Shown here: positions 1 to 3,769 of the stretch, one piece after another
How the letters are laid out: each line of letters begins with the position of its first letter
Position numbering within the stretch: the first letter of the stretch is position 1
Origin: a virus
UHGV virus genome: UHGV-0157394
DNA length: 26,072 nt
Strand: one strand, 5' to 3'
Position numbers and translations under genes: made by a program
The notes under the pieces: model-generated
Told to the model about the DNA's origin: nothing
Seen by the model: the letters and a program-made list of their open reading frames with translations, nothing else
The model's database searches: none

Positions 1-113
1 CTGGTATCACTTAAAGGTATTAAAAACAACTTTTTGTCTTTTTACCTTCCCGTTTCGCTCAAGTTAGTATAAAAAAGCTGAACGTGAAACATTAAAAACC
101 AGTAATATCAATG

Positions 114-122
114 TGTTACAAT
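114..122 (+). promoter_or_regulatory. Candidate extended -10 promoter (TGtTACAAT), no convincing -35
   Basis: TGTTACAAT motif at 114-122 in AT-rich non-coding DNA; a strong terminator lies about 100 nt downstream on the same strand. Confidence 0.3.
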
Positions 123-224
123 ATCTTTAGTCTCAAAAATAGACTACATGATGCTACAAAACACAACATATCCAGTCACTATGAATCAACTACTTAGATA
201 GTATTAGTGACCTGAGACAGAGCA

Positions 225-264
225 TTAGCGCAAGGTGATTTTTGTCTTCTTGCGCTAATTTTTT
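225..264 (+). terminator. Intrinsic terminator: 10-bp perfect stem (TTAGCGCAAG / CTTGCGCTAA) followed by TTTTTT
   Basis: Perfect inverted repeat 225-234 and 249-258 followed by T6 at 259-264; the reverse strand lacks a U-tract, so it is plus-strand specific. Confidence 0.6.
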
Positions 265-403
265 GTTATCAAACATGTCGCACTCCAGAGAAGCACAAAG
301 CCTTGCAATCCAGTGCAAAGATTTGTGTGCCTCAGTTTTGTCTAAGTGTTCTACTGAAAACATAGTAAAATCGGCAACGGCTGGAAATCATTCAATACTC
401 GCA

Positions 404-670
404 CTATCGAAAGTTCGCCAGCCAGCCGCAGCGCGTTCTTGCATACGACGTGTCTGCGGTTTTATATAATCCCAGCCGGTCCAGTTTCCAGACAATCAAC
501 TCATCTCCACTTTTCATCACCGTAATTAATTCCTTTAACACAGGGCGATTAGCTGTTCTGCCACTGGCATATTCTTCATAAATTCGCTCACAGCCAGCTG
601 ACTCAAGTGCAAGACGTTGCAACTCTGTATCCTGATGATTTGTTGATACACGAACATACCCGTAAATCAT
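404..670 (-). pseudogene. pin: Truncated serine recombinase (Pin/Gin/Hin-family DNA invertase), N-terminal about 67 aa only
   Basis: MIYGYVRVSTNHQDTELQ...LIVWKLDRLG matches the invertase N-terminus with the catalytic-serine motif YVRVST; similarity stops near nt 470 and the ORF ends after 88 aa, versus about 185-190 aa for intact invertases. Confidence 0.8.
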
Positions 671-729
671 GAGTGCTTCTCCTGTTGTAAAAACAGGAGA
701 AGAGGCGAAATATCACCTGATTCAGAAAA

Positions 730-755
730 ATATTTGAAAGGTTGGTTTGGGAGAA
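730..755 (-). promoter_or_regulatory. Candidate hix/gix/pix-like crossover site (inner site next to pin)
   Basis: Left half TTCTCCCAAACC is near-identical to the half-site at 1830-1841; the two sites are in inverted orientation. Confidence 0.4.
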
Positions 756-1100
756 GCGGCAAAACGGGATGTGGGAACAGGTTCAGGTCAGATACCGGAT
801 ATGGGAGCATTCGCTTCTGGTTCGGGATGGTTCAGGCTACCAGGTGGATATATTGTTCAGTTTGGCACTTTTTCAGGAAACACGACTCGCTTTATCAGTG
901 GACACTTCCCTATACCATTCCCTAATCAGCCAATGGTTTCAGTCAGTGTTATGTCTGATGCCGTTCAGTCAGACCCGTCGAATCCTGCCCCGCAGGTTTT
1001 GTCTGTAAATTTTGAACATATCAGTAATTCAGCGTGGCGTGTGGCAACCAGTAATATCTCACAGCAATACATATTCAGTTATATTTCGAAAGGACGGTAG
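738..1100 (+). CDS. Silent alternative tail-fibre C-terminal (receptor-binding) segment with no start codon of its own
   Basis: Open frame begins right after a TGA at 735-737 with no ATG; contains WFRLPGG...QFG, paralogous to YFELPGG...QWG in the expressed fibre; followed in the same orientation by tfa. Confidence 0.6.
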   Translation, partial: KVGLGEAAKRDVGTGSGQIPDMGAFASGSGWFRLPGGYIVQFGTFSGNTTRFISGHFPIPFPNQPMVSVSVMSDAVQSDPSNPAPQVLSVNFEHISNSAWRVATSNISQQYIFSYISKGR

Positions 1101-1102
1101 AA

Positions 1103-1528
1103 ATGCAGAAATATATTTTCAGTGCCGATAAAAATGCGTTTTTCCCTGTGGAGCTTAAAGTCGCTTATCAGGAATCCGGCGAATGGCCCGATGATGTAAT
1201 CGAAATTGACGACACTGTTGCCGCCGAATTTATGAAGGAAGCACCAGAAGGAAAATACAGAGGTGTCATCGACGAAATGCCAGCATGGATTGATATTCCA
1301 CCACCAACTCATGAGGAACAAATTGCCGCAGGCGAATTGGAAAAGCAGCAATTGATTAATCAGGTCAACGAATACATAAACAGTAAGCAGTGGCCTGGCA
1401 AATCGGTGCTTGGACGCCTGAAAGATGATGAATTAACGCAGTACAATTTATGGCTGGATTATCTTGATGCGCTGGAAGCGGTGGACGTATCCAGCGCTCC
1501 AGATATTGTTTGGCCCTCCTCAACCTAA
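1103..1528 (+). CDS. tfa: Tail fibre assembly protein (Tfa/gpU-like chaperone)
   Basis: 141-aa ORF with the typical Tfa composition and conserved C-terminal region, positioned directly after a fibre C-terminal segment. Confidence 0.85.
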   Translation: MQKYIFSADKNAFFPVELKVAYQESGEWPDDVIEIDDTVAAEFMKEAPEGKYRGVIDEMPAWIDIPPPTHEEQIAAGELEKQQLINQVNEYINSKQWPGKSVLGRLKDDELTQYNLWLDYLDALEAVDVSSAPDIVWPSST

Positions 1529-1534
1529 ATAAAA

Positions 1535-1557
1535 AGCCGCTCTACGCGGCTTTCTCT
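1535..1557. terminator. Bidirectional intrinsic terminator between convergent tfa and tail-fibre genes
   Basis: AAAAAGCCGC-tctac-GCGGCTTTCTCTT: GC stem with A-run upstream and T-run downstream. Confidence 0.5.
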
Positions 1558-2132
1558 TACATCCCGAGTGCAAAATACGTATAGCTGTCAATATTGTTTG
1601 CCGTGCCGTTTCCATTCCATCCATAAAGGCTAAAGCCAGTTAAGGTATAATTAGCTGACGTCACATACCGACCGTCAGCTGTGATTTTATGCGGAAGAAC
1701 GATAAATGGGGTGACATTAAACGGTTTTTTAAAGCTTACCGTAGCATTGGTCGCCTGAACCGAGCCGTGCCCCCATTGCAGCAGCAATCCTCCCGGTAAT
1801 TCAAAGTACCCATCAGCCTCCAGTAACCGTTCTCCAAATCCAAGGTTTTCGAGAGCCGTTTTCACCGTGCCATCCGATTTGATATCGCCAAACGGATTCT
1901 TGCGGCTTAACAGCAGCGCACGAAGCGCGGTAAGCAGCTGGTCATGCCGCCCCTTCTCCAGGCTGGCACCGGATGCCTCCACCACGCTGCAGAGTTCTTC
2001 CTGCAACATATCAAAGTAGTCATCATCCAGATCGGTGGCAGGTGTGCCGGTCTGGGGGTTACCACGGGTAAAACCGTTCTTACCCGCGCCGAACTTATCC
2101 TTCTGCGCGGTTTTCGTGTCTATACGATGCAT
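1557..2132 (-). CDS. Tail fibre protein (constant N-terminal part plus currently expressed C-terminal tip)
   Basis: 191-aa ORF at the end of the baseplate gene series; its C-terminal half is paralogous to the plus-strand fragment at 738-1100. Confidence 0.8.
1830..1855 (+). promoter_or_regulatory. Candidate hix/gix/pix-like crossover site inside the tail-fibre gene
   Basis: TTCTCCAAATCCAAGGTTTTCGAGAG matches about 20 of 26 positions of hixL as I recall it (TTCTTGAAAACCAAGGTTTTTGATAA); lies at the constant/variable junction of the fibre. Confidence 0.5.
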
Positions 2133-2135
2133 GGA

Positions 2136-2720
2136 TTACTCCGGATATTTAAAAATTACGTAGGTATGCGACGGGCAGAGTTTGTTAAGCACACACTCGA
2201 CAACGGTGTCGCCCCAGATACGCAGCGCGGAATCACAGGGATCGCCACATGTCATCCAGGTGGTGTTTGTGGCGGCTGGCATGTTGACCTGCCAGTAATA
2301 CCGCCATTCCGGCACATTCACCGCGTCAGTACAGGCCGATGAGCAGGTGAACGTGCTTATGTCGTATCGCGTGATGGTAGCGTCTGGTCTGCCCAGGGCA
2401 GCAAGCTGTGCAAGATAAAAATTCTCGTTGATGCCGCCCGCCAGGTTAACCTTCGCATCCAGCCGTTGCTGACGCTGGCGAAGGGTCTGCGTCCCTGCCG
2501 GAATACATTCATCCGGCAGACCGCACAGACGCTCCCAGCGGTTTATCAGTTCAGTGGTGGTGCGCGGATCCAGCTCCCGCATCAGGGCATCCGCACGCTG
2601 ATGAACGCGGGTTAATGACGGTGCCACACCGGCAATCGCCGGATCGCTGGCTGACCACGCCGGACCGGGGGGCAACAGTGCCGACAACAGACGGATGTAA
2701 TCATCGTTTGTCACGTCCAT
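2136..2720 (-). CDS. Mu gp48-like tail/baseplate protein (DUF2313-type; e14 YmfQ-like)
   Basis: 194-aa ORF between baseplate J and tail fibre; family resemblance from memory. Confidence 0.75.
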
Positions 2721-3769
2721 GAAATCGTCCCCAGAACCGCCAGTTCATTTTTTGCAATGGAGATATTATCTGCCGGTGCAAGCAACTGATGGCTGTATTC
2801 CCCGTTCGCACCGGAAATCGCCTCACTGATACGCGATACCTTCAGTTCTCCCTGCGGATAACCATCACGCAGCAGGAACGAACGCAACTCCGCGGTGATG
2901 GCAGCCCGTATTTCCGGTGTATCCGGCGTCACACGGATATGAAAATCCACCGTATGCGCCACCGGCCTGAACACATACAAATCAGAGCCTGCCACCGGGG
3001 CCAGCGGCCCGATATGTTGTCTTGCCGCCGTTTCCGTTGATTCTTCCGGAATGGGATTAATCAGGTCACTACTGGCAATCATCACACCGACAGTCCCCGT
3101 TCCCATCCAGTGACGGTATGCCCATGCGCGGGTAATGCCGGGCACTTCTTTAGCCCAGACGACATAGTCCCCGTCAGCCCCGCCCTGCGGCGTCCAGTAA
3201 TACCGCTCAATGACGCGGGCGCGCCACGTTTCCAGATCTTCAGTATCAAATCCACCTGTCAGGGTATCTGCCACACCGGAAGACGGCAGACCATTCACCG
3301 GCGTGACCAGGATTAATGCCGTACCGTCGTCAGCGTTACCGACCGCGCCTGCAGTTGAACAGGCGATCGGCAGGCGCAGGACACCACCGGAGCTGGTTGC
3401 ATCGGCAGTTGCCGTGTACTGAACCAGGTCATCGCGCTGAATAACACTTCCGGCGGTCACCTTCAGGCCATCGCTGACACCTTCCCAGCGCATATACCCG
3501 CTGGCAGCCGTGGCCCCCTTGCGCGGACACCGTTTCATCGCAGCATGTCGCGCCAGCCAGAACTCATCGCACAGGTCAGGCAGCATGTTCATTGCCAGAT
3601 AATCGATGTACCCGTAAACCGTATGCAGCGCCGCCGCATACACCTTTGCCCGCACGTCTTCATCCATGCGCCGGAGCGTGTCGCTGACGTCCAGCCTGGC
3701 GAATAAATCGTTACGGAGCATACTGATATTTTCTGCCAGCGTCGGGCGCTGAAATTCACTGTCCGCCAT
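2711..3769 (-). CDS. Baseplate J-like protein (Mu gp47-like)
   Basis: 352-aa ORF in conserved Mu-like baseplate order. Confidence 0.85.

Follow-up and report, generated by a model that had tools for sequence, protein, structure and literature searches.

One question raised by this locus is what lies between the truncated invertase gene pin and the left end of the window, by which we mean the whole 26,072-bp stretch of viral DNA analysed here. The original prediction regarded this sequence as a promoter-to-terminator unit that could give a small RNA and as a possible rearrangement or prophage boundary at which pin had been disrupted. The GC content is 29-32% over positions 1-200 versus roughly 40-65% further in. 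An ORF exists at 242..469 (+), however, its start falls inside the terminator hairpin and its translation had no Pfam match. The initial view that the stretch is AT-rich and holds no credible ORF, 242..469 included, is therefore supported.

The comparison with bacterial and phage sequences provides an answer for the region as a whole. Positions 1-268 very probably represent attR (P-O-B') of a prophage integrated at the lambda site of E. coli (ybhB/ybhC), plus the tI/sib element, which directly follows the P arm. The 15-bp att core of lambda, GCTTTTTTATACTAA, has a single exact match in the window (chance expectation 0.02), which by coordinate transfer corresponds to the lambda misc_recomb feature at 27724-27738. 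In a three-way alignment, positions 1-78 are those of attB from strain MG1655, whereas from position 79 onwards MG1655 diverges and lambda attP is followed. Moreover, the sequence just downstream of ybhB in E. coli AB66 matches positions 1-465 at 98.3%; in this strain ybhB is oriented towards the prophage, and its stop codon precedes window position 1 by 28 nt. The same junction is found in attR of the bio-transducing phage DN1. The exact core, the switch from host to phage sequence at this core and the adjacent ybhB gene thus identify attR at the classical lambda site, and the suspected prophage boundary could be confirmed. Hence, the AT-rich non-coding stretch is the P arm of attR, which is textbook biology and already known. 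The genes int and xis as well as attL are absent from the 26,072-bp window, in which the core occurs only once, because the contig stops in the nin region that forms its right end.

The binding sites of the recombination proteins were placed by transferring the annotation of the lambda Int region through an alignment that runs without gaps over positions 60-331, and by consensus scans. These sites are listed in Table 1 together with the other features of the region.

Table 1. Features of the attR-sib region, the truncated pin gene and the adjoining fibre segment (window coordinates)
Feature	Position	Strand	Remarks
Host chromosomal flank	1-63		B' side of attB-lambda; identical to MG1655
Core-type Int site B', CAAGTTAGT	60-68	+	1 mismatch to CAACTTNNT; inside lambda 'int 3'
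att core (overlap region O), GCTTTTTTATACTAA	64-78	-	15 bp; host-to-phage crossover point
Core-type Int site C, CAGCTTTTT	72-80	-	1 mismatch to CAACTTNNT; inside lambda 'int 3'
IHF site H2, TATCAATGTGTTA	106-118	+	exact to consensus WATCAANNNNTTR
Xis site X2, CATGTAGTCTATT	138-150	-	2 mismatches to lambda X2; same as in ev099 and HK97
Xis site X1, TATGTTGTGTTTT	158-170	-	exact lambda X1
Int arm-type site P2, CAGTCACTAT	173-182	+	exact consensus; lambda 'int 2' (27615-27634) transfers to 168-187
IHF site H1, AATCAACTACTTA	184-196	+	exact to consensus WATCAANNNNTTR; identical to lambda
Int arm-type site P1, AGGTCACTAA	204-213	-	lambda 'int 1' (27583-27602) transfers to 200-219
sib retroregulatory element	214-268	+	CAGAG/UUUUG pairing atop the tI stem, after read-through of the T-run
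Intrinsic terminator tI	224-264	+	12-pair stem 224-235/248-259, then T6 at 259-264
Non-coding spacer past sib	265-364		shared with HK106 over the full length and with the lambda b region as far as 331
Conserved linker	365-462		in phages whose invertase is intact, directly follows its gene
Truncated pin, 88-aa ORF	404-670	-	invertase only in residues 1 to ~66 (nt ~470-670); HTH DNA-binding domain missing
Invertible tail-fibre segment	730-1856		between pin and the fibre gene
Hix-like crossover site, TTCTCCCAAACCAACCTTTCAA	730-755	-	
Alternative fibre C-terminus	747-1100	+	Gp53-like
Tail-fibre assembly gene	1103-1528	+	
Terminator-like hairpin	1531-1555	-	strong; 10 pairs, then TTTTT
Expressed fibre gene	1557-2132	-	opposite to the alternative fibre and assembly genes
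Hix-like crossover site, TTCTCCAAATCCAAGGTTTTCGAGAG	~1831-1856	+	

The sites C, H2, X2, X1, P2, H1 and P1 occur in the same order and at the same spacing as in attR of lambda, with which the window also shares the 15-bp core and the host flank on the B' side, and P2, H1 and X1 are identical in both. In lambda, X2 overlaps a Fis site, and X1.5 and Fis are located between or overlapping the Xis sites. However, the P arm in the window is the allele of HK97 and ev099: over positions ~60-266 the identity amounts to 99.5% with ev099 and 97.6% with HK97 compared to only ~86-88% with lambda, the differences to lambda being found mostly between C and X2. For P arm and sib taken together, HK97, HK106 and ev099 carry the closest alleles (93-99.5% identity). 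In these phages, however, the module is present in its attP form beside int and adjoins siphovirus stf/tfa genes, whereas in the window it stands beside an invertase gene and an invertible fibre segment. Among 10 aligned phages, the P1 segment TTAGTGACCT is invariant in all 10, and the ATCA..TTA framework of H2 is retained in nine.

The hairpin downstream of P1 is clearly a real structure. It reached a folding energy of -19.3 kcal/mol (z = -5.6), and none of 200 shuffled sequences was as stable, which is far beyond chance. A repeat finder reported inverted repeat arms at 217-234 and 249-266. The terminator noticed initially thus stands, on the same strand and with its T6, but its stem consists of 11 Watson-Crick pairs plus one G.U pair and not of 10 perfect pairs. 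When 20 nt were added on each side of the hairpin, the extended sib fold had an energy of -31.6 kcal/mol (z -5.4) and the same architecture as in lambda (-28.4). The database records of related phages carry corresponding annotations, namely, in HK97, a 'sib retroregulation site' whose position corresponds to 217-266 and, in O276, a 'Transcription terminator tI' whose position corresponds exactly to 225-264. Furthermore, the order int - core - P arm - hairpin is found on one strand in lambda, HK97, HK106, ev099 and O276, and this strand corresponds to the + strand of the window, where the hairpin starts 11 nt from P1 and 146 nt from the core. The columns 218-266 are invariant among the window, HK106, HK97, lambda and DN1 except for changes in the loop of HK106; hence the stretch from P1 through the T-run is base-for-base that of lambda. 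The element also shares with lambda tI/sib its position relative to P1, its strand relative to int, as seen in the relatives with the attP form, and the predicted extended stem. The difference concerns the bases after the T-run, GTTATC in the window versus GTCATC in lambda, so that the predicted outer stem would be longer by a few window-specific pairs; otherwise no structural difference exists. Judged from its sequence, the hairpin is the already known tI/sib element of lambda and does not belong to a new small RNA. A generic terminator scan did not report the tI hairpin, which is explained by its restriction to loops of 8 nt or less; accordingly, we rejected the missed call as evidence against a terminator.

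The alignment of the 10 phages includes phages with different cores, for example HK022, Stx1a_11KH263 and PPompW. The mean pairwise identity was 71% in the core (64-78), 56% over 79-137, 68% in the X2-X1 part and 82% in the P2-H1-P1 part. It rose to 95% in tI/sib (217-268), the most conserved block of the region, and dropped to 38% in the 22 nt following the T-run. Because tI/sib remains 95% identical in a phage set with different cores, it can be regarded as a sharply bounded, strongly conserved cassette. The CAGAG/UUUUG pairs are retained in 9-10 of the 10 phages. Covariation could not contribute to the structural assignment, since the hairpin is nearly invariant: 18 of the 25 stem pairs never vary and none has changed on both sides. 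The structure therefore rests on thermodynamics, on the identity to the experimentally defined element of lambda and on the record annotations.

Regarding the function in the lysogen, the sequence identity suggests that this copy of the P arm would serve as a platform for DNA bending by IHF on H2, by Xis on X1 and X2, by Fis, and by Int on P2, consistent with the roles reported for H2, X1-X2, Fis and P2 in attR and in the bending of the P arm for excision (PMC4880445). The bent P arm would then allow attR to pair with attL for excision. In the integrated state, the whole prophage would lie between tI/sib and int, hence sib would not exert retroregulation on the int mRNA, and in a lambda lysogen the integrated tI/sib is likewise uncoupled from int. 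This separation of sib and int in the prophage is the classical reason why the induction of a lysogen gives enough Int. Excision or infection would place int, attP and sib side by side again. Transcripts from pI would end at tI with nothing but the terminator hairpin and be stable, whereas N-antiterminated transcripts from pL would continue past the T-run and fold into the longer sib stem. In lambda, this long stem is a substrate of RNase III. Its cleavage would permit degradation in the 3' to 5' direction into int, with the outcome that less Int than Xis would be made during lytic growth. Such a scheme corresponds to the reported location of sib distal to int and to the different expression of Int from pI and pL (PMC2951348, PMC5300877).

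The host side of the junction should also be considered. In MG1655 (around 807,2xx-807,4xx), bioA, ybhB and ybhC point in the same direction, and the start codon of ybhC follows the attB core at a distance of ~48 nt. Since the core lies between ybhB and the start of ybhC, integration cuts ybhC off from upstream read-through. A stem-loop without T-run is found 3' of ybhB, and its final 4 nt are window positions 1-4. As this stem-loop has no T-run, tI would be the first canonical terminator on that strand, and in the lysogen tI may stop bioA-ybhB read-through into the prophage.

It is a different matter whether such an attR still belongs to a functional prophage. The same attR/sib could be part of a dead relic, in which int/xis were lost or the prophage is defective and where the element would at most terminate read-through from ybhB. 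We consider this unlikely. Although a deletion has already inactivated pin and the contig shows no int, every binding site is intact, and P arm plus sib share 99.5% identity with the sequenced phage ev099. Prophages at the lambda site are often decayed, as exemplified by the related lysogen 203740, whose prophage is a different one, IS-ridden and with a pseudogenised portal gene; here, however, the 25 kb of late and lysis genes form contiguous ORFs with 97-98% identity to the sequenced phages SfII, SfI and vB_EcoM-689R6.

An independent small-RNA gene of ~135 nt, which would extend from an extended -10 element at 114-122 to the terminator at 224-264, is very improbable. The motif TGTTACAAT is indeed present at 114-122 (+), where it represents a formally good extended -10, and a strong terminator follows ~100 nt downstream on the same strand; yet TGNTANAAT occurs at chance level (3 matches in the window versus 2.6 expected), and when 160-nt sequences of matching composition were simulated, 8% had an equally good extended -10 on the strand in question (P ~0.08). 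While a TAnnnT hexamer is kept at the -10 position in most relatives, the preceding TG is lost, being replaced by CA in HK106 and HK022, by TA in lambda and by GA in PPompW, and Stx1a_11KH263 has lost T6. The motif overlaps the 3' half of the IHF site H2, the consensus of which explains the conserved TTA. Moreover, all bases between the motif and the terminator are already assigned to mapped protein-binding sites. A generic promoter scan gave nothing in 1-640, and none of the best 25 E. coli records bears an ncRNA annotation at this region. No Rfam family was matched: at the gathering score there was no match in the whole window or in the lambda and DN1 loci, and at E <= 10 the best hits in window 1-1200 were unrelated miRNA or sRNA models with E >= 0.5. 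The missing match to tI/sib is not evidence against this element, because Rfam has no sib model. Hence, the proposed promoter-to-terminator unit could not be substantiated; its -10 is at chance level, not conserved in its TG and placed within H2, and its terminator is tI of the int unit. One variant of the idea, which we regard as extremely doubtful, is that the -10 overlapping H2 fires in the lysogen, perhaps at low IHF, to give a P-arm RNA of ~135 nt that ends at tI. If this were true, the RNA or the transcription across X2-X1-P2-H1-P1 would modulate the assembly of the excisive attR complex, which in alleles of the HK97/ev099 type would add a layer of excision control that has not been described before.

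With the attR assignment in place, the truncation of pin can be viewed separately. The Pfam Resolvase profile matched residues 2-67 of the pin ORF with its positions 1-76 of 145, hence the pin homology ends near nt 470, as was originally noted. Compared to the intact 188-aa invertase of phage SKA5, which served as reference for the deletion, codons 1 to ~66 are retained (486-670), while codons ~67 to 188 plus 38 nt downstream are gone. This deletion of ~394 bp spans 2599-3015 of the SKA5 locus, and the break is situated at ~463-485 in the window. The linker 365-462 is the sequence that normally begins 38 nt downstream of the invertase stop codon. Because the sequence left of the break is thus the usual invertase-downstream segment, pin has suffered an internal deletion, and a replacement of its 3' part by the boundary was rejected. 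Phage phi458 and the prophage integrated at thrW in E. coli EC596 have the same deletion junction, without any inserted element. In this regard, the suggestion that pin was broken by an insertion sequence, of which the region would be the untranslated end or the terminal inverted repeat, can practically be dismissed, for no evidence in its favour was found, the matches to positions 1-468 all belong to att, sib or phage spacer and include no IS, the host junction falls exactly on the lambda core, and the region is the end of another kind of mobile element, a phage attachment site.

The distribution of the pin allele supports the distinction between the deletion and the boundary. Exactly the same 88-aa allele occurs beside four modules, namely attB-lambda/ybhB, thrW, dusA-int-DinI and another int/xis pair. 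The first of these, with attR, sib and the truncated pin next to ybhB-bioA, is found in five other assemblies at 98-100% identity, where the block 1-757 is 99.7-100% identical even when the tail-fibre or baseplate modules differ (OZ249091.1 and JALMEA010000001.1 are among the sequences with this block); none of the complete RefSeq E. coli genomes contains 1-700 as one piece. As the same truncated allele accompanies four integration modules, the prophage boundary did not break pin, and the part of the original prediction that linked the two had to be abandoned in favour of a separate internal deletion.

The gene resembles the Pin/Gin/Cin/Hin invertases (for example pin of e14 and gin of Mu) in that it is accompanied by alternative fibre C-termini and a chaperone gene lying between hix-like sites, and its N-terminal 66 residues including the region of the catalytic serine are 100% identical to the SKA5 invertase. 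In contrast to the members of this family, the pin product of the window does not possess residues ~67 to 188 with the HTH domain and would therefore be unable to bind or invert DNA alone. With pin truncated, the invertible segment is probably locked, unless another invertase acts in trans. The terminator-like hairpin inside this segment, which is located directly downstream of the expressed fibre gene, is consistent with an end of the late operon there.

The sequences between sib and pin showed some further features. The spacer homology with the thrW prophage of EC596 starts at ~270, right after the T-run. An imperfect hairpin of ~40 nt can be drawn at 293-334 on either strand, and the scan listed two weak terminator-like hairpins on the - strand at 320-301 and 298-278. 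The DN1 record bears the label 'antisense RNA' on the lambda equivalent of 269-430 (-), for which no Rfam family matched. The linker (365 to 462-468) is 93-95% identical to SKA5, HK97 and HK106 and is contiguous with the truncated pin in phi458; it is likely a site, and possibly a hotspot, of module exchange. On its + strand, a hairpin at 424-461 followed by TTTTAT (dG -19.6 kcal/mol, z -2.75) is possibly a second terminator. Its - strand gave a weak Rfam match to CssrB (E = 0.53), far below the gathering score.

The prophage body differs from lambda. From 1830 to ~22600 it is 97-98% identical to SfII, SfI, SfIV, SfV and vB_EcoM-689R6, i.e., to phages with contractile tails of the Mu type. The Shigella serotype-converting phages SfII, SfI, SfIV and SfV use thrW for integration; the body in the window is joined to an att-sib module of the lambda/HK97 type at attB-lambda, which makes the prophage a mosaic of this module and an SfV-like morphogenesis block. 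The window itself corresponds to one entire metagenome contig (ENA ERZ773397, NODE_524_length_26072_cov_52.95). A second metagenome scaffold of 39.6 kb, ERZ28667306, shows 100% identity to it over a compared length of 10.7 kb and extends into ybhB-bioA-bioBFCD-uvrB.

Collectively, the exact right boundary of the prophage is now fixed at the core at 64-78, its integration site is attB-lambda between ybhB and ybhC, and its integration module is typed as HK97/ev099. The removal of a false small-RNA candidate adds little new biology. Nevertheless, the comparison shows tI/sib to be a tightly conserved cassette with an abrupt end behind the T-run. The movement of the truncated pin allele among at least four integration modules is a case of phage mosaicism, neat but unsurprising. 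Finally, a myovirus body of the SfV/SfII type can carry a lambda-type att-sib module.
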